Shown one piece after another: positions 3,617-34,859 of a DNA stretch of 64,000 nt. The stretch is from Chloroflexota bacterium. Lineage in GTDB: Bacteria; Chloroflexota; Chloroflexia; DAOUBH01. A program made the translations under genes and the position numbers. The notes beneath the pieces are model-generated. The model did no database searches, had not been told where the DNA came from, and saw only the letters and a list, made by a program, of their open reading frames with translations. The stretch spans positions 27,170-91,169 of the forward strand of contig DAOUBH010000022.1 in NCBI GenBank assembly GCA_034432775.1, read 5' to 3'. The stretch's first letter is position 1; the number at the start of each line of letters is the position of its first letter.

Positions 3617-3934
3617 AAACAGATAAAGCGCCAGCCATGCACCCCCTGTCGACCCAGCCCTTCCTGCTTACCCGTGCTGGCTGACTCCGACCAGGTTTCC
3701 CCACGGCGCCCAGGATTGCCCGCTTACCGTTGCTTCCTTCCGGACCTGGCGGGGTTCACGGGATCCTGCCGCGTAGGACCCAGCCTTCAACGTCGCCCGG
3801 CACGGGCAGTCCAACAAGAACCGGCCTCGAGGGGGACTTCGACCCCGCTACAGCGGATTGCGGGTACAGGGCACCGCTAGCTCCCCGTCTAGCATGGCTG
3901 GCATATCCATTATAACTGGACCCGCGGTCATCGG

Positions 3935-7345: not shown

Positions 7346-10023
<2,678 letters not shown>

Positions 10024-18930: not shown

Positions 18931-20321
18931 GGCAGAAACACCAGCAGGAAGCAGATCTGCTCGTCCTGGGGGAATGGATCCTCCTGTCAGCAAACGATGC
19001 CCTACAACGGGGAGCCATAGCGGTACGGGACGGCCTTATAGTCGATGTTGGTCCCCAACGAGATGTTATGGAACGGTACCGCGCCAAGAGGGTCATCGGC
19101 GGCGCCGATAGGATCGTTGCTCCCGGGCTAATAAATACCCATACCCATCTCTTTCAGACCTTCCTCCGCGGATTGGGCGAAGGGCTGCCATTGCGCACCT
19201 GGGTCGAGCGAGTAACTACCCCTGCTGCCCTTGCCATGACCTGGGAAGACGCCTACCTGTCGGCTGCCCTGGGCCTCATCGAGGCCCTTCACTCCGGAAC
19301 TACGGCTGTCTTCGAGTATGGGTACGCCTTTCCAGATCCATCCCTGCACGAGGCCACCTTGAAAGCTTTCCTCGATGTGGGAGTGCGTGGCTGGTTGGGG
19401 ATAGGTGTCAACGATGCTGGGATTGAGTTCGGCGTCCATCCGGCATTCATTCAGACCGTCGATGAGGCTCTGAAGAAGGTGGACGATTTGCGTGTCGCGA
19501 TGGCCAGGCTTGGCCAGATGCCGGTCCAGTTAGCCCTCGTCTCGGGAAGCATCAGAGGCCTATCTTCCCAGGGCGTCAGGGCCTTCCATGGGTACGCAGA
19601 GGCCAACGGTCTACTCTATTCCCTCCACCTCAAAGAGATACCCCAGGACGACGAAACAGCCCTGCTGCGTTTCGGTACCAGGGCAGTGCCGTGGCTCGCT
19701 GATTGCGGGGTCCTCAAGCCTAATCTCCTCGCTGTCCACTGCGTGTGGCTCAACCAGGAGGACATAGACCTCCTGGCTGAGGGCCGCTCCTCTGTGTCCC
19801 ACAACCCCGTCAGCAACATGTATCTAGGTGCGGGGATAGCTCCAGTGGCAGAGTTGCTGCAACGTGGGATCGCAGTAGGCTTAGGCACCGACGGGCCAGC
19901 AAGCAACAACAGCATGGACATGCTCCAGACGCTGAAGTTCTCCATACTGGGACAGCGAGCCCGAAAGGCCTCGCCCGATATCATAACCTCGAGGGACGGC
20001 TTCCGCATGGCTACGGAGGACGCTGCCCGGGCCTTGGGGGTCGAGGGTCTTCTTGGACGCATCGCTCCTGGATATGTGGCCGATATTGTTGTTTTCCGCA
20101 CCGATACCTTCCAGGGAGTCCCTTGCCATGACCCCTACGCTACGTTAGCCTTCTCAGCCGGTTGTGGCTCCGTAGAGACCGTGATGGTCGGAGGGCGGAT
20201 CGTTCTAGAGGAGGGTCTGGTCAAGACCCTCGATGAAGCCGACATCGTGGCTAGGGCATCGACAGCAGCCAAGGATCTGGTCCAGCGAGCAGGCATACCC
20301 GCAGGAGTGTTCGTGAGGTGA
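18927..20321 (+). CDS. metal-dependent amidohydrolase (cytosine/guanine deaminase or chlorohydrolase-like)
   Basis: APGLINTHTHL metal-binding HxH, later HCVW and GLGTDGPASNN; GTG start overlaps permease stop (GTGA). Confidence 0.75.
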   Translation: MRQKHQQEADLLVLGEWILLSANDALQRGAIAVRDGLIVDVGPQRDVMERYRAKRVIGGADRIVAPGLINTHTHLFQTFLRGLGEGLPLRTWVERVTTPAALAMTWEDAYLSAALGLIEALHSGTTAVFEYGYAFPDPSLHEATLKAFLDVGVRGWLGIGVNDAGIEFGVHPAFIQTVDEALKKVDDLRVAMARLGQMPVQLALVSGSIRGLSSQGVRAFHGYAEANGLLYSLHLKEIPQDDETALLRFGTRAVPWLADCGVLKPNLLAVHCVWLNQEDIDLLAEGRSSVSHNPVSNMYLGAGIAPVAELLQRGIAVGLGTDGPASNNSMDMLQTLKFSILGQRARKASPDIITSRDGFRMATEDAARALGVEGLLGRIAPGYVADIVVFRTDTFQGVPCHDPYATLAFSAGCGSVETVMVGGRIVLEEGLVKTLDEADIVARASTAAKDLVQRAGIPAGVFVR

Positions 20322-21345
20322 TCTCGGGCATCACCATGAATCCCGATGCCGATCCCCAGGTGTTGAAAGCCATAGCCCGACAGGTGGAGGAGCTCGGATT
20401 CTCCTACTGCTACGTTGCCGACCAAGGCCTGAGTCGCGACGTATATGTGACACTGTCCAACCTGGCCGCCTCCACCACAAGCCTACGGTTGGGCCCTGGA
20501 ATCACTCACCCCTATGTGCGGCACCCGGCCGCCACAGCCGTGGCCATAGCGACCCTAGATGAGCTATCCCACCACAGGGCCTTCCTGGGCATAGGAGCCG
20601 GTGGCACCCGCGCCCTCGCCCCCTCAACATCGACAGAAGAGAGCCACTCCGCGCCTGCACCGAGGCAGTGGAAATTGCGCGACGGCTCTGGACCGGCCAA
20701 CCCGTAGACTTTTCCGGCCGCTACTTTCAGCTTAGAGGCGCCCGCATCAACTTTCCTTGCCGGCACAATATAGAGGTACACTGGGCTGCCCGGGGTCCCA
20801 AGATGCTACGCCTGGGCGGTGAACTGGCTGATGTAGTTTTCCTCCATGGAAACCCCCACAGCGAGATAGCTGAAGCTGTGCGCCATGTTCGGGCGGGAGC
20901 CCTTGAGGCCCAACGGAAAGTGAGGATTCACCTGGCACTGCCAATAATCTATGATCAGGCCTCCTTCGAGAGCGGACGCTTAAGGACAGCTTGCAGGTTG
21001 GTCGATCTCACTGAGGATGCCAGGAGGAGGCTGGACATATCCACACAGCTCCATTCCAGGATCAGGGAGCTGGTGCTATCGTCGCAGCTCGAGTCCGCTG
21101 CACAGCTTGTGGAGCCTGAACTGGTCAGGCAATTTGTAGTCGACGCCACAGACCCGGAGTCGCTTCGCGATCTGGCCAGGACCATAGCTTCTCTCAACTT
21201 GGACGGCTTTATAGTGGAGATCAGTAACCCGTACCTGGCTGCAACTATACTTCCCGTGGCCCATCAGGTCATCGCCAAGACCATGCAGCTGCTCAAGGAC
21301 CAAACTACTGGTAGTCCACAAACCTATCAGGGAGGTGTCCCATGA
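20318..21345 (+). pseudogene. F420-dependent LLM-class (luciferase-like/Mer-like) oxidoreductase, reading frame broken by apparent -1 frameshift in a C5 run (20619-20623)
   Basis: N-terminal frame ...LGPGITHPYVRHPAATAVAIATLDELSHHRAFLGIGAGG (Mer-like); C-terminal part continues in another frame as PLNIDRREPLRACTEAVEIARRLWTGQPVDFSG...; one extra C would restore GAGGTRALAPLNIDRREPL. Confidence 0.6.
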
Positions 21346-22439: not shown

Positions 22440-22826
22440 GTGGAAAAGAGGTTCGTTAATCCAGCCGAACTGCATGCTCCCTTGGGAGCTGGCTGCCACG
22501 TAGCTGTGGCCGGCAGGACCATCTACGTGGCAGCCCAGCTTCCCTTGGACAAAGACGGTAACCTCGTCGGGCCCGGCGACCCTGTGGCTCAGGCCGAGCA
22601 GGTGTTCCGAAATCTGCAAGCAGCCCTTCGGGCCGTGGATGCCAACCTGGGGGATGTCGTCAAACTCACAACATATCTGAGAGACCTGGAGCATCGCCCC
22701 TTGGTCATGGAAGTACGTAATAGGTTCTTCGGTAGCCACCGCGCCCCGAGCACCCTGGCCCTGGTCGTAGACCTCCCGGTGCCGGGGGCTCTCCTCCAGA
22801 TCGACGCTATAGCCGTGAAGGACTGA
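22440..22826 (+). CDS. RidA/YjgF/Rid-family protein (paralog 1)
   Basis: 128 aa; RidA core (...IYVAAQLPLDKDGNLVGPGDPVAQAEQVFRNL...LLQIDAIAV). Confidence 0.85.
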   Translation: MEKRFVNPAELHAPLGAGCHVAVAGRTIYVAAQLPLDKDGNLVGPGDPVAQAEQVFRNLQAALRAVDANLGDVVKLTTYLRDLEHRPLVMEVRNRFFGSHRAPSTLALVVDLPVPGALLQIDAIAVKD

Positions 22827-22828
22827 TC

Positions 22829-23227
22829 ATGTGGGCCCGTAAAACTATTTCGCCCCCACAGAACCCGAGGCCCACCAGTTACTACTCCCATGGAGTCCTT
22901 GCAGGTCCGTGCCTCTATACTGCTGGCCAGACCTCCAGGGACCCCCACGGAAACCTTGTGGGGTCGGACAGCATAACTCTTCAGGCTGCCCAAGCTCTCC
23001 GCAACCTGAACAACGTACTGAACGAAGCAGGCATGACACCTTCCGACATCGTGTTCCTTCGTGTGTTCCTCAGGCGAGCCGAAGACTTTGAGGCTGTTTC
23101 GCAGGCCCTGAGGGCCTTCTTGGGCAGCCACACCCCTGCTATCACCGTAGCCATCGTAGAAGGGTTAGCATACCCCGAATACCTTCTGGAGATAGAGGCC
23201 ATAGCCGCAGCAGGGGACCCGCCATGA
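22829..23227 (+). CDS. RidA/YjgF/Rid-family protein (paralog 2)
   Basis: 132 aa; ...LYTAGQTSRDPHGNLVGSDSITLQAAQALRNL...LLEIEAIA. Confidence 0.85.
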   Translation: MWARKTISPPQNPRPTSYYSHGVLAGPCLYTAGQTSRDPHGNLVGSDSITLQAAQALRNLNNVLNEAGMTPSDIVFLRVFLRRAEDFEAVSQALRAFLGSHTPAITVAIVEGLAYPEYLLEIEAIAAAGDPP

Positions 23228-23607
23228 AGCAGCGGATCTCAGTACCGTCCATACATCGACCGACCACCTATTACTCTCATGCCATCGTAGTAGACGGGTG
23301 GGTGTACACGGCCGGCCAGGCTCCGCACCGTCCCGACGGAAGTGTCTGGGAGCCATCGGACCCTGAGGGCCAAATTCGCCAGGTATGGGAGAACATGCGC
23401 GAAGTCCTCGAGGCCGCTGGCTCGAATCCTGAGAATATCCTTCGCCTCGTCGTGCTGCTCAAGGACAGGGACCTCGTGCCTCTCTTCTGGAAAGTCTCCA
23501 GCGATTACTTGGGGACTTGCCGCCCGGCTACATCGCTGGCCGTGGTGAAGGGTATGGCCGATACCCGCTATCTAATAGAGATGGAGGCCATTGCGCTGTG
23601 CCGCTGA
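23224..23607 (+). CDS. RidA/YjgF/Rid-family protein (paralog 3)
   Basis: 127 aa; ...VYTAGQAPHRPDGSVWEPSDPEGQIRQVWENM...LIEMEAIA; ATGA overlap with paralog 2. Confidence 0.85.
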   Translation: MKQRISVPSIHRPTTYYSHAIVVDGWVYTAGQAPHRPDGSVWEPSDPEGQIRQVWENMREVLEAAGSNPENILRLVVLLKDRDLVPLFWKVSSDYLGTCRPATSLAVVKGMADTRYLIEMEAIALCR

Positions 23608-23622
23608 GCTTCCCAGCTCAGC
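23603..23622 (+). terminator. candidate stem-loop (gctgagc-ttccca-gctcagc) at convergent gene junction
   Basis: Perfect 7-bp inverted repeat overlapping the RidA-3 stop; weak T-tract only. Confidence 0.25.
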
Positions 23623-23702
23623 TCTTCGCACATCGCTATAAGGCTTACCCAGATCGCCGAGTGAACACAACTACGCACGGGGGAGCAGCACTGTTCTCCT
23701 CG

Positions 23703-25016
23703 CTAGTCCCCCTGGCACAGGACCTCTAGATCTTCCCAGAAGCCAGGATACGAGATATTCACGCACTGAGGGTCCGAGATCGAAGTCTCCCCGTGGGCCA
23801 CCAGACCTGCTACGGCCAGGGCCATGGCCATCCTATGATCTCCGTAGCTGTTCACAGCTGCCCCTCTGAGCTTCGCTGGTCCATAGATGCGGAGACCATC
23901 GGGCAACAGATCTATCTTAGCTCCCATGCGGCCCAGCTCCGTGGCTACAGCCAGCAGTCTATCGGTTTCCTTGTAGCGCAGTTCCTGGGCACCCCGGATG
24001 GAACTTACCCCTTCCGCAGCACACATAGCCACGGCCAGGATCGGCACCTCGTCGATTAACCGGGGGACCTCTTCAGGCACAATATCCGTTGCTCGTAACG
24101 TGCTACTAACAACGCGTAGATCTGCCAAGGGCTCCCCGCCTGTAGTCCTCAAGTTATTAGTCGTCACCTGGCCGCCCATCCTGCGCAGCACATCCACTAC
24201 ACCTGCACGAGTAGGGTTAACACCTGTGCCAAGCAGCTCAATATCTGCGTCGGAATGTATGCACCCTGCCACGAGCCAGAAGGCTGCCGATGAGATATCG
24301 TTGGGAACTACCACAGACAAAGGCTGCAAATCCTTCCCACCTCTCACGTAGATCGAGCCATCCTCGGACCGCAGGTCGGCGCCCATGGATCGGAGCATGC
24401 GCTCGGTATGGTCCCTTGAGGCTGTCTTCCCATATATCACTGTCTCGCCGGAGGCCATAAGGCCGGCCAGCAGCAGGGCAGACTTCACCTGTGCTGAGGC
24501 CACGGGCAGCTCATAGGATATAGCCTTGAGGTCGCCCCCCATTACAGCTATGGGAAGTCTTTCACCTCCCTGGCGTCCCCAGATGCGGGCACCCATAGAC
24601 CTAAGGGGAGCCACTACCCTGCCCATGGGTCGCGAACGAAGCGAGGCATCGCCAGTTAGCACCGCGAATAAGGGCTGGGCGGAGAGCATACCCAGCACCA
24701 GACGAGCCGTCGTGCCCGAATTGCGGGCGTCCAGTACGTCTTGGGGTTCCTGTAGCCCCTGCAGGCCCACCCCATGGACCCTCACAATCCAACGTCGGGA
24801 AGACTTGGCAACTACTTCGAGGGTCACCCCGAGGTGCTCTAGAATTTTCATGGTAGCCAAGCAGTCATCCCCGGGCAGAAAGTTCTCGACTAGGCTCTCA
24901 CCAACAGCCAGGGCTGGCAACAGAAGTGCCCTGTGAGATATCGATTTGTCTGGGGGCACTTCAACCCTACCTTTCAGGCCCGAGGGCGGCCGCACAACCT
25001 TGATGTCCCCACTCAT
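23703..25016 (-). CDS. aroA: 3-phosphoshikimate 1-carboxyvinyltransferase (EPSP synthase)
   Basis: N-terminus GRVEVPPDKSISHRALLL, later LGTGVNPTRAG; 437 aa. Confidence 0.95.
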   Translation of the reverse strand: MSGDIKVVRPPSGLKGRVEVPPDKSISHRALLLPALAVGESLVENFLPGDDCLATMKILEHLGVTLEVVAKSSRRWIVRVHGVGLQGLQEPQDVLDARNSGTTARLVLGMLSAQPLFAVLTGDASLRSRPMGRVVAPLRSMGARIWGRQGGERLPIAVMGGDLKAISYELPVASAQVKSALLLAGLMASGETVIYGKTASRDHTERMLRSMGADLRSEDGSIYVRGGKDLQPLSVVVPNDISSAAFWLVAGCIHSDADIELLGTGVNPTRAGVVDVLRRMGGQVTTNNLRTTGGEPLADLRVVSSTLRATDIVPEEVPRLIDEVPILAVAMCAAEGVSSIRGAQELRYKETDRLLAVATELGRMGAKIDLLPDGLRIYGPAKLRGAAVNSYGDHRMAMALAVAGLVAHGETSISDPQCVNISYPGFWEDLEVLCQGD

Positions 25017-25453
25017 ACCAGAGAGTACCTGTCTCGCTTATAGTCATCCAGAAAGACTGCGCAGCTGTCACACAAAACCACATAGCCCTTTCGCATACGG
25101 GTGCCGGCTAGGGTCTTGTGCCTGTAGGAGTATCCATAACGGGACACATGGCGCGAGCAGTAGTAGACTCTACATCTGTCACAGGAAGTCAGCGAAAGGC
25201 CACCACAACCTTCCCAACCACAAAGCCCTTTGGCGTTAAGGGAAGCGCCCACTTGCCTTCGGCGTTGTTCCAATATTTCCCCGGCCTCTCGGGCCGCATC
25301 CCGCCAGAAAGCAGGAAGGCAACCGAGGCAGACCCTCCTGTTGACATCGCCGTGGGCCACGCAGAAGTATCGGCCACAGTAGGTACAACGATCCACGGGC
25401 TCACGCCTGCAGGCAAGTACCCGAAGTCGTTTCGTCTCACACGTGAGGGCCAT
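25013..25453 (-). CDS. cysteine-rich hypothetical protein with two C-x2-C-x4-C-x2-H ... C-x2-C repeats (zinc-ribbon-like)
   Basis: 146 aa, 14 Cys; CTYCGRYFCVAH...CLGC and CDRCRVYYCSRH...CDSC; stop overlaps aroA start (ATGA); 12 bp downstream of aroC. Confidence 0.5.
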   Translation of the reverse strand: MALTCETKRLRVLACRREPVDRCTYCGRYFCVAHGDVNRRVCLGCLPAFWRDAAREAGEILEQRRRQVGASLNAKGLCGWEGCGGLSLTSCDRCRVYYCSRHVSRYGYSYRHKTLAGTRMRKGYVVLCDSCAVFLDDYKRDRYSLV

Positions 25454-25465
25454 GGCCAGCCCACT

Positions 25466-26548
25466 TTACAAACGCGCCAGACGCTGACGGAGCCAATGAT
25501 CGACTAGCACCAGTGCCATCATAGCCTCAGCCACAGGCACCACTCGTGGGCATATGTTGGGGTCATGCCGACCCTTTACCTCTACTGGTACGGCTCTACC
25601 GTACCTGTCCACGGTTGTCTGGGGCCTCGAAATAGACGAGGTAGGCTTCACAGCTATACGCACAACGATATCCGCACCGGTAGATATACCGCCCAAGATG
25701 CCTCCAGCGTTGTTGGTTCTCGGTAAAATCCGCCCACCTACGTTGGCAAACTCGTCGTTGGATTGGGAGCCCCGAAGCCTCGCTGCCTCAAAACCCGCGC
25801 CAATCTCGACACCCTTCACGGCCGGTATACTGAGCATCGCTTTTCCAAGGTCGGCATCCAGCTTGTCGAACACCGGTTCGCCGAGGCCAGGAGGAACGCC
25901 CAGCCCCCATACCTCCACAATACCTCCGAGGGAATCCCCTTCCTGGCGGGCTGCTTCGATGGCCTCGATCATCTGCTTGGCGGCTTCTAGGTCCGGTGCC
26001 CGCACCGGGTTTTCCTCTATAACGTCCAAATCCACCCGTTCAGCACGGATCTCCCCAACCTGGCGCGTGAATCCTACTATCCTTATGCCAACAGTGGCCA
26101 GCAACTTCTTTGCCACGGCACCCGCCGCCACACGGCCTACCGTCTCTCTGGCACTTGCCCTGCCCCCACCACGATAGTCGCGGATCCCGTACTTGGCCTC
26201 GTAGGTGAAATCGGCATGACCCGGTCGGTATAGGTCCTTGAGGGGTTCATACTTTGTCGAATCGACGTCTTCGTTCCAAACCAACATGGATATTGGGGTC
26301 CCCGTGGTCACCCCTTCGAAGACACCCGATAAGATCTGAACCGTGTCGCTCTCCTTGCGAGGCGTTGTTATCGAACTCTGGCCGGGGCGGCGTCGATCTA
26401 ACTCTTTCTGAACGTCGGCTTCACTCAGGGGAAGCCCTGCAGGGCAGCCATCGATCACCACCCCGACGGCCGCCCCGTGGGATTCGCCCCAGGTGGTAAT
26501 TCGGAACACACTGCCAAAGGTATTGCCCATGTCTCTGGTCAAAGCCAA
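25466..26548 (-). CDS. aroC: chorismate synthase
   Basis: [33 protein letters not shown]...; 360 aa. Confidence 0.95.
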
Positions 26549-27357
26549 AAGGCATAGAGGGTTTGCATTCCAGCCTCTCTGCGAAACCCGAAGCCTTCGT
26601 AGAGCCTGCGGGATACCACGTTTCTGTCCTGGGTGCTGAGATTTACCTGGTGCATTCTACGCAAAGCCAGTAGTTTCACCAAAAACCTCAGCATCTCGGG
26701 AGCGAGTCGGCGGCCCTGAAACTCGGGAAGGATGGCAATACGGTCCAGGTGAGCCCAGAAGCCGTAAGTCGCATAGCTGAAATAACCTATGTTCCTTCCT
26801 TCAAGGCTTACTAGATAGGCCTCGACCTCAGGCTGATTCAGATACTCTTGAAAGGCCTCGCGCTCGTTCCACCAAAGCCAGGGATATGCCGCATGGTCAA
26901 TTTCCAGTATATCATCTAACTCGGCGTTTCCTGCCCTCCGGAAGCCCAGTTGTTGAGCCGGGTCTCCTTCGTCGCCCCGAACGCGATATGTGTAGTAAAT
27001 GAGGCGTTCCCATTCCACAAATCCAAGGTCAAGCCACAGGTTACCTTCCGGTAGAATTCCGTCGACCAGCAACAGCACCACCAGGGTCCCCAGGCTACGG
27101 AAGCTCCCCACAAGCGCATCCCACAGTACAGGTATGTCTTTATCCTCCCTACGGTATTCGACCACGTGCCCTATGGCCCTCCGACGCATCCATAGGTCGC
27201 CGATGAGATAATTACCGCTGTCTGGCATCCACCAGGCCAGGCCTGGATTGGCCTGTACATGCCGAAGGATATCTTCCTCAGGAATTAGGCTGTACCAACC
27301 CATGCCGAGTGCCTTCACATCGTCGGGGCGAAGTGGCAAGGGTCCTTTGAGGCTCAC
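26539..27357 (-). CDS. GNAT-family N-acetyltransferase domain protein
   Basis: C-terminal acetyl-CoA motif region [15 protein letters not shown]; N-terminal domain of unknown function. Confidence 0.55.
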
Positions 27358-28988
27358 TGGGAAACCTTATAGGCAGAGTCGAGACGAAGAAGGCCAAGGG
27401 GAGTCAGTTTTATCCCCTTGACAGAAGGCTTCACCAAAAGGTTCTCCTTTCCGTAATAGATCGGTATCACCACGTGTTCGCTCAGGGCAAGCTCTTCGGC
27501 CCGACGCAGGGCCTCGCGTCTCTGATCGCCGGACAGAGAAGCCGATTTCTCGATCAGCTGGTCGAACTCCTTGCTTGAGAAACCCACATGGTTAGCCCCT
27601 CCCTTGGAGGCGAGCAGAGGTTCTAGGATAGCGACAGGGTCAGGATAGTCCGCGATCCAACTAGAAATGAAGGCAGGCATCTCACCCCTGTCCAGCAAAG
27701 CCAGATAATCCCTCCACTCCACTCTCCTGACCTCCACCTCCAAACCGAGGTTATCCCTCCACTGCGCTGCGATGGCTTCTGCCAGCCGACCTCCCGTAGT
27801 ATACAGGTGGATGATGGGCAAGTTTTCCGGTCCCATATATGTCGATTCCCGCAGCAGTTGCCTGGCCTTAAAGAAATCCACGTTCTGCTGCGATGACAGG
27901 CTGTATCCGGCGAGGCTTGGAGGCACCAGACCCAAAGCAGGCTCCACACTGCCGTGGTATGAAGCCTTAGCGATCTTGCCGCGGTCCACTGCCAGGTAGA
28001 GAGCTTCCCGCACTTTGGGATCCTCGAAAGGCTTTGTCCGAAGGTTGAGACCCACATAAGTTACCGAGAACTCATCCACCTCCTGAAGCTCCCGGGAGAG
28101 GTTGCTGGAAGGATCTTTCACCCGGAACAGGTCGTCGGCCCCAACCCAAGCTAGATCTACCTTACCAGCCTCGTACAGGTTGAGGGGCTGAAGGGCCTCC
28201 GGGGATAAGATCAGCCGCACCTCTTTCACTGCTGGCCGTCTCCGGGGATAGGTGTCCGCGGGCACTAGCCGCATGAGCTCCTGCCGCCTCCACTCTTCCA
28301 CCCTGAAGGGCCCAGACCCATTCGGTTTCAGGGTCCAGTCGCCCCCAGCCGAAATCTGCTTCCTGTCGACCACGAAGGCGCAGGGAAAAGCCAGCTTGTA
28401 AAGAAAAGTTGGGTCGGGTCTAGACAACGCGATCTGGAGCTTGGTGGACCCCAGAACCCGCACGCCATCCAGCCCCGAGGCTTTACCCGAAATCCTCTCC
28501 TCGAAACCTTTGATGGTCGATAGGTAAGTGGCTGCTGGTAAGGTGGAGGGTGCATCGGGATAGGCTAGACTCGGATCGCTGGCCCGGTCCAGAGAGAATT
28601 TGATGTCCTCTGCCGTTATAGGCCTTCCGTCCTGGAATCTCGCATCAGACCTCAAGGTAAAGGTGTAGACGGTTCCATCTGACGAGACCTCGGGAAGCGA
28701 CGCAGCCAAGTCAGGCTGAAGGTTCAGATCATCGTCCAAGGTAAGCAGTCCACTAAATACCTGCCTGGCGACAAAAGCTGAGTCTACATCTTTGACCAAC
28801 GCCGGATCGAGGGTAGATGGGTCATCCCCGAGCGGGATCGACAAAGTCTGATCACCGCCAAGGGTGACTTCAGGCAGCCTGTAGTTCCAGCTTAAATCGG
28901 AGCAGGCCCCAAGGAAAAAGGCGAGAAGGGCGAAAAGTACAAGGAACGTCCTGGATCTCAGCATCAAACCTGTTCTGCGAAATGACAC
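27354..28988 (-). CDS. ABC transporter substrate-binding lipoprotein, family 5 (peptide/nickel type)
   Basis: Lipoprotein signal FLGAC-S; 544 aa, size and layout of OppA/DppA-like binding proteins. Confidence 0.8.
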
Positions 28989-29989
28989 GCGCTCAGATGT
29001 TCGCCATCGATCTTCCTAAGGGGCGGCTCCACCTTGCGACAGATCTCCTGGGCCATCCAACATCTGGTATGGAACCTGCAGCCCTCCGGCGGACGGAGAG
29101 CGCTGGGCACCTCTCCTGTCAGCACGATTCGCTCTCGCCGAAGCCTAGGATTAGGTACCGGTATCGCTGACAGAAGGGCCTTCGTATAAGGATGTTTCGG
29201 CCGTGAGAACAAGGCATCCACCGGTGCTATCTCGACCATCTTGCCCAAGTACATTACCCCAACCCTGTCCGATATATGCTCCACCACGCTCAGGTTGTGG
29301 GCAATGAAAAGATAGGTGAGGTTGTACTCCCTTTGAAGGTCGCGCAGGAGGTTGAGGACCTGGGACTGGATGGACACATCCAAGGCCGAAACGGGTTCGT
29401 CGCATACGATGAACTTCGGACTCAGGGCCAGAGCACGGGCTATCCCGATCCGCTGCCTTTGGCCACCGCTGAATTCATGAGGATACCGGCGGGCGTGTTC
29501 AGGATGCAGGCCCACCCGAGCCAGTAATTCCTGTACTCTCATCTCCCTCCAGGCCCTGTCTCCAATTTTGTGGATCACCAGGCCTTCAGCTATGCTCTCG
29601 CCGACAGGCATCCTGGGGTCAAGGGAAGAATAGGGGTCTTGGAATATAATCTGCATGTTCCGCCGCAGAGCCTTCAGCTCACTTCCCTTGATCCGAAACA
29701 GGGGCTTGCCGTCGAAGAATACCTCGCCCTTAGTGGGAGGAATCAATCCGAGAATGGTGCGGCCCAGGGTAGTTTTACCACAGCCACTTTCCCCGACGAG
29801 ACCGAAAGTCTCTCCTTCCCGCACTGAGAAGCTCACGCCATCTACAGCCTTGATGTACCCTGCCACTCTTTGCAGGATCCCACGCCTGACAGGAAAGTAC
29901 TTGTGGAGATCGTTGACGATCAGCAGGTCACGGCCTCGTGAACCCGACCTATCCTGTACCGACACGGCCCCCTCAGCGTGCCCCGTCAC
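28964..29989 (-). CDS. peptide ABC transporter ATP-binding protein (OppF/DppF-like)
   Basis: Walker [10 protein letters not shown], signature FSGGQRQR, Walker [14 protein letters not shown]-terminal oligopeptide-type extension. Confidence 0.85.
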
Positions 29990-31005
29990 CCTTCCTCCCT
30001 CTGCACTGCGTGGGCTACTGCTTCGCCAGCCGCTCTGTCATGGTACAGCCAGCAACGGACCCTACGAGTTGCCTGTCCGTTATAGGGAAGGAGCTCGGGC
30101 TCGGCCTTGTCGCAGGGCTCAAACCGTTTGGCACACCGGGGATGGAACCTGCACCCGGAAGGAAGGTTCAGCATGTTGGGCACTGAACCCGGTATGACTT
30201 CCAGGCGATCCTTGTTGATCCCAAGAACAGGGATAGAGGCCAGCAGGGCCTGGGTGTACGGATGAAGGGGCTCCTCGAACAGAGAATATGCGTCGGCATA
30301 CTCCACAATCTTGCCTGCATACATAACGGCCACGTTATCGGCCATCTCGGCCACAACTCCCAGGTCATGGGTAATCAGGATTATGGCCGTTCCGTGCCGC
30401 TTGCGGAGTTCCTTCATAAGCTCCAGGATCTGGGCCTGCACCGTGACGTCAAGAGCAGTAGTGGGCTCATCGGCAATCAACAGCTCTGGCTCGTTCGCCA
30501 GGGCCATGGCTATCATCACCCTCTGGGCCATGCCCCCCGAAAGTTCGTGCGGATAGGCGTGCATACGTCTTGCTGCATCTGGCACGCCTACTTCCTCCAG
30601 GAGCATCGTGCTTCTCTGCCAGGCTTCGTCTCGGCTCATGCCCCGGTGCACCATCAGCACCTCGGCTATCTGGTCTCCCACCTTGTATACCGGATTCAAG
30701 CAACTAGTGGGCTGCTGGAAGATCATGGAGATGCGGTTGCCCCTGTACTGGAGCATCTCATGCTCGGAGAGCTTGAGCAGATCGACCCCATCGAAGGTCA
30801 CCTGTCCTTCGACAATGCGGCCAGGAGGAGCAATCAGCCGCAGTATCGAAAGGGAGGTGACGCTCTTCCCGCAGCCGCTCTCTCCCACCAACCCCAGCAC
30901 CTCGCCTTCTCTCACGACCAGGTCGACCCCGTCGACGGCCCGAACGACCCCTTCGGTGGTGTAGAAGTAGGTTTTCAGATTTTCAACCCTCAGCAGCTCC
31001 TTCAT
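29986..31005 (-). CDS. peptide ABC transporter ATP-binding protein (OppD/DppD-like)
   Basis: Walker [30 protein letters not shown]. Confidence 0.85.
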
Positions 31006-31013
31006 AGCTTACT

Positions 31014-31916
31014 TCAGACCTTCAGTCTGGGATCCAGAGAATCCCGCAGCGCATCTCCGATGAAGTTGAGGGATAGGACCGTCAGGAAGATGCAGGCGCC
31101 AGGGTATATGGCCAGCCAGGGGTTGCTCCACATGTACTGCTGAACTCCATAGAGCATGTTGCCCCAGCTGGGAACCGGCGGCTGAATCCCCAGCCCCAGG
31201 AAGCTGAGGGCAGACTCTGTGATAATGAAAGCCCCCACCGATAGCGTGGCCTGCACAATAATGGGCGCCATCGAGTTCGGCACCAGGTGACGGAACATGA
31301 TCCTAATATTGGAGGCCCCCAGGGCCCGAGCAGCCTCCACGAAGTCCTGGCCCCTCAAAGAGAGCACGGTACCCCTTACGAGCCTAGCCGCCGGCATCCA
31401 GCCAAATATGGTGAGGATTATGACCATGTTGAGCACAACTATACCAACATGGCCTGTGGTGCCCACCATCTTCGAAAAGATGATCAAAAGCGGTAGGGTG
31501 GGGAGCGAGAGCATCAAGTCCACAATGCGCATACTGACAGCATCCACCCAGCCTCCGAAGAACCCCGAAACTACCCCTACCACTGTACCTATGGCGATAG
31601 TAAGAACCATGGCAGTGAAGCTTACCAGCAGGGAGATCCTGCCCGCGTACATCAAGCGAGTGAGGGTATCGCGTCCCAACTCATCGGTTCCCAAGAGGTG
31701 GGCACTGGTCGGGCCACCGAACATATTGCTGAGGTCCTGCTGGTCATAGGTATAGGGAGATACTAAAGGCACAGCTATAACACCAAGCACGAGGAGGGCC
31801 AGAATCACAAGCCCCACCACAGCCATCCTATGGCGCCGAAAGCGCCGCCAGAGGACCACGATGAAGGATGGTTCCGGAGGGGCTAGTAGTTCGACTTCAG
31901 CTCGAGCAACAGCCAT
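31014..31916 (-). CDS. peptide ABC transporter permease (OppC/DppC-like)
   Basis: Polytopic permease with ABC EAA-type loop region. Confidence 0.85.
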   Translation of the reverse strand: MAVARAEVELLAPPEPSFIVVLWRRFRRHRMAVVGLVILALLVLGVIAVPLVSPYTYDQQDLSNMFGGPTSAHLLGTDELGRDTLTRLMYAGRISLLVSFTAMVLTIAIGTVVGVVSGFFGGWVDAVSMRIVDLMLSLPTLPLLIIFSKMVGTTGHVGIVVLNMVIILTIFGWMPAARLVRGTVLSLRGQDFVEAARALGASNIRIMFRHLVPNSMAPIIVQATLSVGAFIITESALSFLGLGIQPPVPSWGNMLYGVQQYMWSNPWLAIYPGACIFLTVLSLNFIGDALRDSLDPRLKV

Positions 31917-31929
31917 CTCGCCAGTGACC

Positions 31930-32892
31930 TCAAGAGTACCGGATCCTGGGATCTACCAGGGCATAGGCTATGTCGGCTATAAGGTTCGCTATTACCACTA
32001 GCAGCGCCGTCATCACCAAAATCCCCATGGCCACGGGCCAGTCACTGCTGAACACGGCGTCATAGTAAAGCCTGCCCATTCCCGGCCACGCAAACACCGT
32101 CTCAGTGATGATGGCGCCCGCAAAGAGGTCGGGCAGGGCGAGGGCCACTACGGTGATTACAGGAATCAGGGCATTCCGCAAGGCATGCTTGAAGATAACT
32201 GTTCCTCTGCCCAGCCCCTTGGCTAATGCCGTGCGGATGTAATCCTGCCTCAAGACCTCCAGCATGGACGAGCGAATGAAACGACTCCAGCCAGCCACGT
32301 AAAAGAGGCTCAAAACTACCATGGGCAGTATCAGATGCTTGAGCCGGTCTATTGGGTCCCACTCGTATCCCGGGGTAGCCATGCTTCCAGCTGGCAGCCA
32401 TCGGAGGGTAACAGCAAATATGATTATGAGCATGAGGCCGAACCAAAAGGTGGGCATAGATATACCCACGAAGGAAAAGGCCGTCACGAGATAATCGAGC
32501 TTAGAATATTGTTTCACGGCCGAGTAAATCCCTATGGGAAAGGCAATAAGCAACGACAACACTAGGGAAGACGTCATAAGCAAGAGCGTGTTTCCAACAC
32601 GGCTTTGGATCAGCTTGAGCACGTCTACACCACGGGCTACGCTCCACGACGTGCCCCAGTCACCCGTCACGATGCCCTTCAGCCAGTCGATGTAACGCAT
32701 ATGCACCGGCTTATCCAAGCCGAGAAGTCGATTGAGACGCTCTATATCTGCCTGGGTGATCCTGGGGCTAGACGCACGGAGGGTGCTGAAAGGTCCTCCA
32801 GGGACAAAATTGAGGATGAAAAATATGAGGGCAGATGCGAAGAAAACCACCACCAACATCTGGAGCGAACGCCGTACGAGGTAGCCTGTCAA
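31930..32892 (-). CDS. peptide ABC transporter permease (OppB/DppB-like)
   Basis: Polytopic permease, 320 aa, first permease of the pair. Confidence 0.85.
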   Translation of the reverse strand: MTGYLVRRSLQMLVVVFFASALIFFILNFVPGGPFSTLRASSPRITQADIERLNRLLGLDKPVHMRYIDWLKGIVTGDWGTSWSVARGVDVLKLIQSRVGNTLLLMTSSLVLSLLIAFPIGIYSAVKQYSKLDYLVTAFSFVGISMPTFWFGLMLIIIFAVTLRWLPAGSMATPGYEWDPIDRLKHLILPMVVLSLFYVAGWSRFIRSSMLEVLRQDYIRTALAKGLGRGTVIFKHALRNALIPVITVVALALPDLFAGAIITETVFAWPGMGRLYYDAVFSSDWPVAMGILVMTALLVVIANLIADIAYALVDPRIRYS

Positions 32893-32993
32893 CTTCAGTA
32901 TCCCTTCACATAAACCTGTGCCTATTTTACATCGCTATATACTCAGGGACGCCGGTGGGGGACGACCGGACCGGTCGTCCCCCACTTACCCCT

Positions 32994-34859
32994 CTACTTC
33001 TTGGGCAGGAACCATTCCTCGACGTTCCAGGTTGGCGGCGTCTGGGTAGGTGTAGGTTTGAAGTTTTGGAGATCGGCCCTCGCAGCGGCCACATTCAGCC
33101 TGTAGAACAGCGGCAGCACAGGGAGCTCATCGGTGAAGATCTCCTGCTGCTGCAGATAGAGTGGGAGACGTTCCTGGTCGCTAAGGGTCTGGAAGGCCTT
33201 CTGGAGAAGCTCATCGTTCTGGGAGTTGCACCAACCTGGGATGTTCTGGCCCGAGTAGTTGTTTTCAGGTTTCGGTATGTTCTTGCAGGTCCAGAGCTCA
33301 AGACCGCCTGGATCGTCGCCAGCTACCCCGAAAAACACGCCAGTCTCAAAGGTGCGTCTGTACAGTGGCCCTTCGCTACCAAAGAACTGCTGGGCAGGTG
33401 TGAATTTGAGGTTCACTTCTATGCCCACAGCCTTAAGGTTGGCCTGGATAATCTGGGTGTACTGCTCACGCATCTTGTTGCCAGCCGTGGTCTCCAGAGT
33501 GAAACTGAACCTCTGGCCATCCTTCACAAGGATGCCGTCACTACCCGGCTTCCATCCCGCTTGCTCCAACAACTGCTTGGCCTTGTTTGGATCGTAATCG
33601 TAGGTAGTGATCTTAGCCTTACCCTTGTTGGCAGGATTCTCGGCCGATGCCCAGTTAGCAGGAGGCAGCCAGGTATTGGCCACGGTAGTCTTCCCGAACA
33701 GGACTTTGTCTACGATGTCCTTGCGGTTGATAGCATGGGCAATCGCCTTCCGGACATTCTTGTCCTTGAAGAGCGGATTGTCCAAGTTGAAGTCCAGATG
33801 CTCCCACACCATGGCCGGCGTGTAGAACACCTTTACCCCAGCGCTCCCAAGCTTGTCGAGCTCTGGTGCCTGCGAAATGCTCAGCGCGTCCTCGGTGGCC
33901 ACCTGTATCTCACCGGTCCTGAGCTGGGCAAGGAGCGTGTTGGTATCGGGAATGATCTTGAAAACCACGTTCTTGATCTTCGGCTTGGTGCCCCAGTAGT
34001 TGGGGTTCTCGGTTAGAGTTATAGACGCACCCGAAACCCACTCTTTAACTACATATGGACCGGCACCCACAGGCTTGCGGGCGAAGTCGGACTTACCGAT
34101 GTCCTTGGGCGCTACATTCTTGAGCACGTGCTCCGGCCAGACCAGGAGTCTGTCACCTGTCGAAACCTTGTTGTAGAGAGGATCGACCACAGGATCCTTT
34201 TGGTCCTTGAACGCGGTGAACTGAGCCTCAGCTTCCTTGATCTTCCCAGCCTTTATGTCAGCCTGCTCCTGCTCATATTTGGCCCTGGCCTGCTTAGCAG
34301 ATAAATACTTGTACACAATGGTCTGATCATCCGGGCAGGCCACCTCAGCGATCTTGTTGGTTAGGCTGCGATCCGGAGCTTGGGTATCGGGATTCTGATA
34401 CAGCTGGTAGCCAAACTGAAAGTCCTTGCAGGTCAGAGGCGTGCCATCGGACCACTTGACCCCTGGCTTCAACTTAAAGGTAACTTCCAGATGCTTGTCA
34501 TCCCCGTCACCCACAAACTTCGCTCCGCCGTTCTCGACGGTAGGCACACTCTGGGCAAGCTCGGGAACGTACTCGTTCTTGTCGTTCCGCTCGATCAAGG
34601 CAGCTTCTAAAGCATTCAGCACCACATGGGACACATAGAGTGTGGTTTCCGCCGAATAAAGGCTGTCAGGTTCTTGAGACATGCCTATAGTGATGGTGTC
34701 TACCGCTGCTGGTGGTTGAGTTGGAGCCGGGGCAGCTGTCGGGGCAGCAGTTGTCGGGGCTGCTGTGGGTGTGGGCGTTACAGCTGGCGCACAGGCTGCC
34801 ACCACCACAAAAACCGCTGACAGGAGCCCGAGGAACCATATCAGCTTCCTTCGATTCAT
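32994..34859 (-). CDS. ABC transporter substrate-binding lipoprotein, family 5 (second copy, with Pro/Thr/Ala linker)
   Basis: Signal VVVAAC-A followed by PTPTAAPTTAAPTAAPAPTQPPA linker; 621 aa. Confidence 0.8.
   Translation of the reverse strand: MNRRKLIWFLGLLSAVFVVVAACAPAVTPTPTAAPTTAAPTAAPAPTQPPAAVDTITIGMSQEPDSLYSAETTLYVSHVVLNALEAALIERNDKNEYVPELAQSVPTVENGGAKFVGDGDDKHLEVTFKLKPGVKWSDGTPLTCKDFQFGYQLYQNPDTQAPDRSLTNKIAEVACPDDQTIVYKYLSAKQARAKYEQEQADIKAGKIKEAEAQFTAFKDQKDPVVDPLYNKVSTGDRLLVWPEHVLKNVAPKDIGKSDFARKPVGAGPYVVKEWVSGASITLTENPNYWGTKPKIKNVVFKIIPDTNTLLAQLRTGEIQVATEDALSISQAPELDKLGSAGVKVFYTPAMVWEHLDFNLDNPLFKDKNVRKAIAHAINRKDIVDKVLFGKTTVANTWLPPANWASAENPANKGKAKITTYDYDPNKAKQLLEQAGWKPGSDGILVKDGQRFSFTLETTAGNKMREQYTQIIQANLKAVGIEVNLKFTPAQQFFGSEGPLYRRTFETGVFFGVAGDDPGGLELWTCKNIPKPENNYSGQNIPGWCNSQNDELLQKAFQTLSDQERLPLYLQQQEIFTDELPVLPLFYRLNVAAARADLQNFKPTPTQTPPTWNVEEWFLPKK

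Follow-up and report, generated by a model that had tools for sequence, protein, structure and literature searches.

Most of what is known about AN1 fingers, a poorly understood type of domain, comes from eukaryotic proteins of the ubiquitin system, the proteasome and the stress response. The cross-braced binuclear treble-clef class is marked by eight interleaved ligands in each module (PMC4999995), and the AN1 finger is a Cys6His2 domain with the ligand order CC-CC-CH-HC and the sites CC-CH and CC-HC; the AN1 fingers that have been characterised are protein-interaction modules (PMC5035049). Here we analyse a small gene, called gene X below, that lies between the shikimate-pathway genes aroC and aroA in a 64,000-nucleotide stretch of a Chloroflexota genome (assembly GCA_034432775.1, contig DAOUBH010000022.1, positions 27,170 to 91,169 of the forward strand), the whole of which is referred to as the window. 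Our results show that gene X is a genuine protein-coding gene under purifying selection, that its product has two tandem modules with eight conserved putative metal ligands each, resembling AN1 fingers, and that aroC lies directly upstream in every locus with upstream sequence of the subgroup of the family to which it belongs. The gene and the features that adjoin it are:

25013..25453, minus strand: gene X, a Cys-rich protein of 146 residues with two tandem, predicted AN1-like binuclear zinc-finger modules (list of open reading frames (ORFs), synteny, AlphaFold2)
25466..26548, minus strand: aroC, chorismate synthase (PF01264, E 5e-146; TIGR00033, 470 bits)
23703..25016, minus strand: aroA, 3-phosphoshikimate 1-carboxyvinyltransferase, or 5-enolpyruvylshikimate-3-phosphate (EPSP) synthase (PF00275, E 9e-126; TIGR01356, 421 bits)
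25454..25465, minus strand: spacer of exactly 12 nt from the aroC stop (TAA) to the X start (ATG)
25013..25016, minus strand: ATGA overlap of the X stop with the aroA start, read from the sequence

An earlier note on this DNA had described a 146-residue ORF with 14 Cys, placed 12 bp downstream of aroC and with its stop overlapping the aroA start as ATGA. All of this was confirmed, on the minus strand, and Pfam and NCBIfam matches bore out the identities of the flanking genes. The overlap of the X stop with the aroA start implies translational coupling. Gene X starts with ATG and stops with TGA, and its protein begins with MALTCETKRL and ends with DRYSLV. The composition is unusual for the window: X has 14 Cys (9.6%), whereas the 46 stop-to-stop ORFs with 250 or more residues average 1.0% Cys and reach 3.0% at most; the protein also has 3 His, 27 Lys plus Arg and 14 Asp plus Glu.

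By word-indexed search, orthologues with ~70% identity to X were identified in two loci, L001 (GCA_900175155.1) and L003, both with the gene order peptide ABC transporter, substrate-binding protein (SBP), GNAT acetyltransferase, aroC, X and aroA. The 14 Cys together with H34 and H102 are invariant in the three sequences, and both the frame and the ATGA overlap are kept, which goes well beyond chance. The earlier note had named loss of the ORF or poor Cys conservation in syntenic relatives as the result that would speak for a spurious frame; the opposite was found. In pairwise Nei-Gojobori comparisons of the three genes, the proportion of non-synonymous differences (pN) was 0.17-0.22 and that of synonymous differences (pS) 0.73-0.87, with the synonymous sites saturated, and the ratio of the corresponding rates (dN/dS) was 0.07 for the single computable pair. 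The differences at codon positions 1/2/3 were 37/34/90, 37/26/94 and 29/24/80 for the three pairs, so that third positions dominate. The identity of X to its counterparts in L001 and L003 is comparable to that of AroA (66-68%) and of the GNAT protein (70-73%); AroC is 89% identical to both orthologues. In L001 X was called from too late a start, and when it is read from the GTG at 7968 the protein regains the conserved N-terminus MAL[ST]CE including C5.

The protein can be divided into four parts:

25319..25441, minus strand: module 1, residues 5-45, C5-x9-C15-x7-C23-x2-C26-x4-C31-x2-H34-x7-C42-x2-C45, eight putative ligands
25232..25327, minus strand: central alpha-helix, residues 43-74, predicted to join the modules (AlphaFold2 secondary structure)
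25061..25222, minus strand: module 2, residues 78-131, C78-x4-C83-x7-C91-x2-C94-x4-C99-x2-H102-x25-C128-x2-C131
25016..25060, minus strand: C-terminal helix and tail, residues 132-146, with the subgroup motif L135-x2-Y138-x2-D141-x-Y143; helix 131-138 in the model

The two repeats C-x2-C-x4-C-x2-H...C-x2-C that had been noticed earlier were found as C23/C26/C31/H34...C42/C45 and C91/C94/C99/H102...C128/C131. That account was right about the six ligands it listed per repeat and missed the upstream pairs C5/C15 and C78/C83, which raise the number to eight. In 176 full-length family members each of the 16 candidate ligand positions (14 Cys, 2 His) is at least 97% conserved, and the protein thus has twice the eight interleaved Cys/His ligands per domain of ~40-60 residues that characterise the cross-braced class. 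The family signature is C-x(8-10)-C-x7-C-x2-C-x4-C-x2-H-x(7-10)-C-x(2 or 4)-C for module 1, which ends in C-x2-C in members linked to aroC but in C-x4-C in the majority of paralogues, and C-x4-C-x(7-8)-C-x2-C-x4-C-x2-H-x(21-25)-C-x2-C for module 2, where a beta-hairpin of 26 residues (103-128) is inserted before the last ligand pair. Further near-invariant residues of the family are G27, F30, N73 and G79. The central helix carries N73 as well as the subgroup-specific E62 and R65, which together with R105, L135, Y138, D141 and Y143 make up the conserved surface positions specific to the subgroup; paralogues bear R-x2-W in place of the C-terminal motif. A profile-profile comparison showed the two modules to be homologous (hhalign probability 93%, E 2.5e-7), so the protein is an internal duplication; BLASTP of the N-terminal against the C-terminal half was uninformative.

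AlphaFold2 gave a model with a predicted local distance difference test score (pLDDT) of 94.2 and a predicted template modelling score (pTM) of 0.74 from an alignment of 26 sequences, and this run was used in preference to one with 3 sequences (pLDDT 66). In the model, short beta-elements surround the knuckles, a helix of 32 residues (43-74) begins at C42-x2-C45, the long beta-hairpin 103-128 ends at C128 and the helix 131-138 begins at C131. The last Cys pair of each module is thus placed at the N-terminus of a helix, which argues for a treble-clef arrangement rather than a second hairpin knuckle. Eight ligands per module imply four metal sites per monomer. By analogy with AN1 fingers the sites would be C5, C15, C31, H34 and C23, C26, C42, C45 in module 1, and C78, C83, C99, H102 and C91, C94, C128, C131 in module 2. 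Each module would then hold one Cys3His and one Cys4 site, and the monomer probably about four Zn. The net charge of the protein is +13 (Lys plus Arg minus Asp plus Glu), and the calculated isoelectric point (pI) in the family ranges from 7.9 to 10.6.

Resemblance to AN1 was seen in several comparisons, although at low scores. The zf-AN1 model (PF01428) matched the window protein with 16.7 bits (cut-off 27.9, E 0.008) over residues 78-103 only, and sub-threshold zf-AN1 matches were obtained for 24 of 26 members (E <= 0.1, best E 2.2e-6); precomputed PF01428 matches are carried by a minority of the family. The five best sequence matches in the PDB were all AN1 fingers of ZFAND1/ZFAND2B type (E 0.01-0.1), and in the alignments shown the first six ligands of module 2 are in register with ZFAND1/ZFAND2B. 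A profile of module 2 alone reached E 0.17 against the PDB, as compared to E 0.01 for the full-length profile, and Foldseek with the whole protein found nothing significant in the PDB. When the modules were compared with the Cys6His2 pattern of AN1, CC-CC-CH was present in both and the final H-x-C in neither. Profile searches and structure prediction, which the earlier note had suggested as a check, favoured an AN1-type treble clef and not a zinc ribbon. The Pfam matches of the X protein were all sub-threshold, to zinc fingers and to the Tc5 cysteine-rich domain, and NCBIfam gave no match at E <= 1, so that none to a curated shikimate enzyme or regulator family was found.

The family is small and largely without names. 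When 1.84 billion representative proteins were searched exhaustively with HMMER, 37 clusters were returned (50% identity, E < 1e-3), and a profile search of the 90%-identity collection returned 197 clusters at E < 1e-5. These 197 clusters are unnamed or called 'hypothetical protein', with the exception of one JGI label, 'predicted nucleic acid binding AN1-type Zn finger protein'. Pfam (above threshold) and NCBIfam gave no curated model for the family. The earlier description of X as an unannotated small protein accordingly holds for curated families and fails in that relatives do carry the annotation 'hypothetical protein'. GTDB genomes were also scanned with a degenerate DNA pattern for C-x-Y-C-G-x-x-F-C-x-x-H, and the matches were scored with a family hidden Markov model (HMM); a scan of the GTDB genomes with the single X protein had found no relatives. 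At least 33 loci score at least 90 bits, and among the matches listed all are from Chloroflexota: Dehalococcoidia, Tepidiformaceae, Anaerolineaceae, Chloroflexia, Ca. Chlorohelix and Ca. Amarobacter. Other loci, many of them archaeal, matched the DNA pattern with a weak family-HMM score or none. The members are basic proteins of 130-146 residues, nearly all with exactly 14 Cys; longer entries (184-252 residues) resemble over-called N-termini, and no fused domain was found in them.

Three individual sequences differ from this picture. P0036 (387 residues) has a C-terminal tail of ~240 residues that is highly acidic and rich in Glu, Asp and Pro; no other extension seen in the family appears genuine. 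One Dehalococcoidia genome has two members in tandem (L051:4714-5954), which shows that the family can expand by tandem duplication. On a Micrarchaeota contig, one ORF (L044:5768-6541, 52 bits) holds six C-x-Y-C-G-x-x-F-C-x-x-H motifs at an exact spacing of 150 nt and, from its sequence, looks like a protein of six tandem AN1-like fingers.

Within the aroC-linked subgroup aroC lies directly upstream of X in 14 of 14 loci with upstream sequence, among the matches listed (the window, L001, L003, L008, L010, L115, L123, L130, L132-134, L140, L141, L142, L143 and L144). In the distant loci X is 35-41% and AroC 64-68% identical. Between aroC and X lie 10-13 nt in the window, L001 and L003 and ~19-60 nt in most other loci where the spacer is readable, with larger values in L008 (~150 nt) and L143 (~350 nt to the called start). 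The association with aroA is looser, as aroA comes next after X in only six related loci among those listed: it overlaps X by 4 nt in the window, L001, L003 and the distant L143, and it lies 350-800 bp after X in L008 and L089. The other subgroup loci have no aroA downstream, and L144 has a phosphoglycerate-mutase-like gene instead. The earlier view of a gene embedded in an aroC-aroA operon and coupled to it is thus correct for the window, while the conserved partner across the subgroup is aroC and not the aroC-aroA pair. GNAT and GT4 glycosyltransferase genes often precede aroC, so the block looks vertically inherited, though aroC-X is its only invariant pair. In sister lineages X follows a CN_hydrolase gene (P0006, P0009) or a dCTP-deaminase-like gene (P0004).

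Most family members belong to a different subgroup (B), with the C-terminal motif C-W-x-R-R-K-I-W, and occur outside the aroC context. In the most populous paralogue subgroup the gene is the last of a flagellar hook operon with the order fliE, fliK (Flg_hook), flgD, Flagellar_put, flgE, a YNCE-like beta-propeller gene and X, and several of these paralogues lie 45-70 bp upstream of a PALP/ACT threonine-dehydratase-like gene. In a second subgroup the gene is divergent from a gene for a FliA/WhiG sigma factor (TIGR02479, 194.8 bits, cut-off 189.6) at a distance of 46-400 bp, in six loci among the matches listed. In four of these six a gene of one neighbour cluster follows, and the sampled member (L031) is a HisKA histidine kinase. 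Other paralogues adjoin genes for FAA hydrolase or PDZ proteins. The loci are:

L137:5001-5411, L138:5001-5411 and L139:3848-4258: hook-operon paralogues (also L120, L067, L105 and L113)
L017:1703-2146, L030:1071-1487, L031:1099-1512, L050:1788-2306, L100:1252-1686 and L110:987-1424: fliA-adjacent paralogues

The hook-operon paralogue may be a flagellar regulator, and the fliA-adjacent paralogues might, in the manner of FlgM, act as zinc-finger anti-sigma-28 factors of Chloroflexota. Since paralogues occur in flagellar, fliA and unrelated-enzyme contexts, the generic activity of the family is not specific to the shikimate pathway; the subgroups resemble adaptors or regulators that each serve the genes around them.

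Taken together, the layout suggests that gene X would share a transcript with aroC and aroA and that translation of the three would be coupled. The product would be a small basic protein in which two AN1-like binuclear fingers are joined by a long helix, structured by zinc, non-enzymatic and acting by binding a macromolecule. A non-catalytic binding role is suggested because the protein has no catalytic motifs (it matched no enzyme family in Pfam or NCBIfam) and because the known domains nearest to it all serve in binding. It would be an accessory or regulatory partner, most probably of AroC or of AroC expression, and the regulator or chaperone role proposed in the earlier note is still a plausible one. 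That note had also stated that no known shikimate-pathway component has this form, which agrees with the lack of a match to any curated family. We consider the layered explanation, of a real and selected gene, an AN1-like anatomy, coupling to aroC and a zinc-structured binding or regulatory protein, to have an even chance of being right as a whole, with high confidence in the anatomy and the context and low confidence in the specific partner. Taken alone, the proposal that X is a protein-binding accessory or regulator of AroC is tentative, yet it leads the readings because of the invariant adjacency, the layout implying coupled translation, the surface motif of the subgroup and the nature of AN1 fingers as protein-interaction modules.

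Several points weigh against this proposal. It is gene order that points to AroC as the partner, and the aroC-X adjacency may in part reflect ancestry, as a block inherited with GNAT and GT4. The close relatives of the subgroup follow a CN_hydrolase or dCTP-deaminase-like gene, and the larger paralogous subgroups are tied to flagellar genes. In addition, the AN1 similarity of the window protein falls below the curated threshold, the assignment of ligands to sites is drawn by analogy with AN1, and the putative metal could be Zn or Fe.

Close behind the AroC-partner proposal, and in our view unlikely while still to be taken seriously, is that X is a zinc-finger regulator that binds nucleic acid (DNA or mRNA), for example to control the transcription or translation of its aro genes. 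The basic charge, which is found family-wide, and the long basic and aromatic beta-hairpin (residues 103-128) would suit such a role, as would the sub-threshold Pfam matches of 15 of 26 members to the C-terminal domain of Tc5 transposase and a resemblance to piggyBac-like and ribosomal zinc proteins, and the divergent paralogues beside the FliA/WhiG gene are in a position typical of regulators. The single JGI label points the same way but is a generic name only. On the other hand, no helix-turn-helix or other established DNA-binding family was matched, transcription factors are not usually encoded in a translationally coupled slot between genes for two enzymes, and characterised AN1 fingers bind proteins (PMC5035049).

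Equally close, and just as unlikely in our estimate, is a general role outside the shikimate pathway, such as sensing of stress or redox state via Zn-thiolates or binding to a sigma factor or RNA polymerase, with the gene simply riding along in a GNAT-[GT4]-aroC-X string. This would explain why the family is found in unrelated contexts (the end of the fliE-fliK-flgD-flgE operon, fliA, the PALP/ACT gene, CN_hydrolase and the dcd-like gene), why the surroundings of aroC-X (ABC transporter, GNAT, GT4) have no single functional theme and why aroA is often not adjacent. It fits less well with aroC being directly upstream in all 14 subgroup loci listed while every other neighbour varies, and with an aroC-X spacer that is mostly short (~10-60 nt, apart from L008 and L143). 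The aroA overlap that recurs in two distant lineages and the conserved surface motif that the aroC-linked subgroup has for itself also argue against it.

Highly improbable, by comparison, is that X is a rubredoxin-like iron protein, a redox partner that supplies or gates reduced flavin mononucleotide (FMN) for chorismate synthase. The bacterial enzyme needs externally reduced FMN, and the physiological reductant is often unclear; the gene is always beside aroC in this subgroup, each module has a double C-x2-C site (C23/C26 + C42/C45; C91/C94 + C128/C131), and an invariant Gly comes after the first knuckle, as it does in the knuckles of rubredoxin. However, no rubredoxin or ferredoxin family was among the Pfam matches of the 26 members at E <= 0.1, and no flavin- or NAD(P)H-binding motif was seen in the protein. 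In the nearest relatives (AN1, FYVE, HIT, MYND) zinc has a structural role, and paralogues with identical ligands occur in flagellar contexts, where electron transfer makes little sense. The last alternative, a spurious frame in a GC-rich intergenic gap, has a negligible probability and was rejected: two antisense ORFs (97 and 129 residues) do overlap gene X and GC-rich genomes yield many long chance ORFs, but the frame-specific purifying selection with saturated synonymous sites, the conserved start MAL[TS]CE, the ligand conservation with all 14 Cys kept, the ~200 homologous clusters and the AlphaFold2 model with pLDDT 94 all contradict it.

Returning to AroC as the partner of X, a stronger version would make the aroC-linked subgroup an accessory subunit that some Chloroflexota dedicate to chorismate synthase, a protein with four metal centres that binds AroC and gates or supplies reduced flavin, or confers a response to redox state or zinc. 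We regard this as improbable; if true, an enzyme of the bacterial shikimate pathway would for the first time have a described accessory protein. More broadly, the family may consist of Chloroflexota-specific AN1-like regulatory adaptors whose paralogues serve flagellar sigma-28 control and aromatic amino-acid synthesis. The strict aroC-X adjacency leads to a testable hypothesis, namely that some bacteria attach a zinc-finger accessory or regulator to chorismate synthase, and the paralogues at flagellar loci may represent a flagellar regulator of a new type in this phylum. Should X be a generic small zinc protein, the family would merely be one more domain of unknown function.

Gene X and aroC are part of a longer series of genes in the same direction:

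26539..27357, minus strand: GNAT (RimI-like) acetyltransferase, directly upstream of aroC (PF00583, E 1.9e-12)
27354..34859, minus strand: peptide-type ABC transporter genes (2 SBP_bac_5 binding proteins, 2 permeases, 2 ATPases), from the ORF layout

The GNAT gene belongs to the same tightly packed string and is syntenic in L001, L003, L008 and L010. The starts and stops of the transporter genes abut or overlap and lead into GNAT-aroC-X-aroA, an order shared with L001. A scan of the window found no sigma-70-like promoter site in 23000-29500, and the three terminator-like sites in this region are below the mean of 4.7 for shuffled sequence. With the TTG at 26548 that is listed as its start, aroC would share 10 nt with the GNAT gene; an ATG at 26530, 8 nt past the GNAT stop, is the likelier start since the orthologues have 354 residues and align from residue 7.

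On the other side, three consecutive small genes (22440-23607, plus strand; 128, 132 and 127 residues) converge on aroA. Their counterparts in L001 are all of the RidA/L-PSP family (PF01042), a triplicated RidA cluster that adjoins a set of NMT1, amidohydrolase and ABC-transporter genes. A luciferase-like monooxygenase ORF (20668-21345, 225 residues) spans only positions 132-308 of the PF00296 profile, and the syntenic gene in L001 has 343 residues, which points to a missed start, a frameshift or an error of sequencing within the ~350 bp that separate it from the amidohydrolase gene (window 20321-21345). Further away, the bacterial large signal recognition particle (SRP) RNA at 3635-3897 (minus strand; RF01854, 195 bits) is the sole Rfam family above its gathering score in the window.

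When X is compared with described systems, the domain class itself is a known one. As far as we searched, in both libraries and literature, the tandem Cys7His AN1-like architecture, the restriction to Chloroflexota and the link to aroC were not found described, and nothing relevant emerged when the literature was searched for the family, for AN1 fingers in bacteria or for a zinc finger together with chorismate synthase. A phage or defence protein was rejected (best PHROG match E 0.76; no PADLOC match). Zinc ribbons and rubredoxins share with X the paired C-x2-C knuckles and the small, Cys-rich form, and the earlier note had called the protein zinc-ribbon-like. A zinc ribbon binds a single Zn through two C-x2-C knuckles that are each part of a beta-hairpin. 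The likeness did not hold, as C42-x2-C45 and C128-x2-C131 begin the helices 43-74 and 131-138, so that the second pair of the Cys4 site stands at the start of an alpha-helix, and each module has eight interleaved ligands as opposed to four; the zinc ribbon was therefore rejected. A single Pfam match carried the name of a zinc ribbon, Zn_ribbon_PriA, in 1 of 26 members (E 0.05). Rubredoxin was rejected as well, because C-x2-C-G is found at the first knuckle only and C-P-x-C-G is absent; PF00301 matched none of the 26 members at E <= 0.1.

For the FYVE, rabphilin, RIM and PHD group of cross-braced fingers, the sequence searches gave marginal matches to FYVE (Pfam, 2 of 26 members, best E 0.006; PDB, E 0.3). 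The Cys-rich domains of transposases (Tc5 C-terminal PF04236; the piggyBac cysteine-rich domain (CRD)) differ from X in that X is a stand-alone tandem pair that has no transposase domain and no mobile-element context. The Tc5 matches are all below the curated threshold, and a transposase remnant was rejected on these grounds. For the paralogues, the anti-sigma factors CsfB/Gin and ZAS-type RsrA offer a functional analogy by context only; zf-HC2/ZAS matched none of the 26 members, hence these anti-sigma factors have no sequence relation to the family.

The closest described system is AN1 (PF01428; ZFAND1, ZFAND2B, yeast Cuz1 and plant stress-associated proteins), with which X would share the cross-braced binuclear treble clef, judging from the model and by analogy. 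The core C-x2-C-x4-C-x2-H with its preceding aromatic residue ('FC..H') is common to both, and the first pair of X module 2 is C-x4-C, as in ZFAND1- and ZFAND2B-type fingers. In the classical AN1 finger ~9-12 residues separate the first two ligand pairs; in X this spacer is shorter, with 7-8 residues, and the first pair of module 1 is C-x8-10-C. Where AN1 ends in H-x-C the X modules end in C-x2-C (or C-x4-C), which makes them Cys7His1, and the last pair is placed 7-10 residues later in module 1 and 21-25 later, past the beta-hairpin, in module 2. In X two fingers are fused via a helix of 32 residues, the host is bacterial, and A20, UBL or other partner domains of the ubiquitin system do not accompany them. 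In comparison with the known AN1 proteins, X is thus a bacterial, stand-alone and tandem AN1-like version with altered ligands (Cys7His per module), from a phylum-restricted, uncharacterised family whose subgroups are each tied to a neighbourhood of their own.

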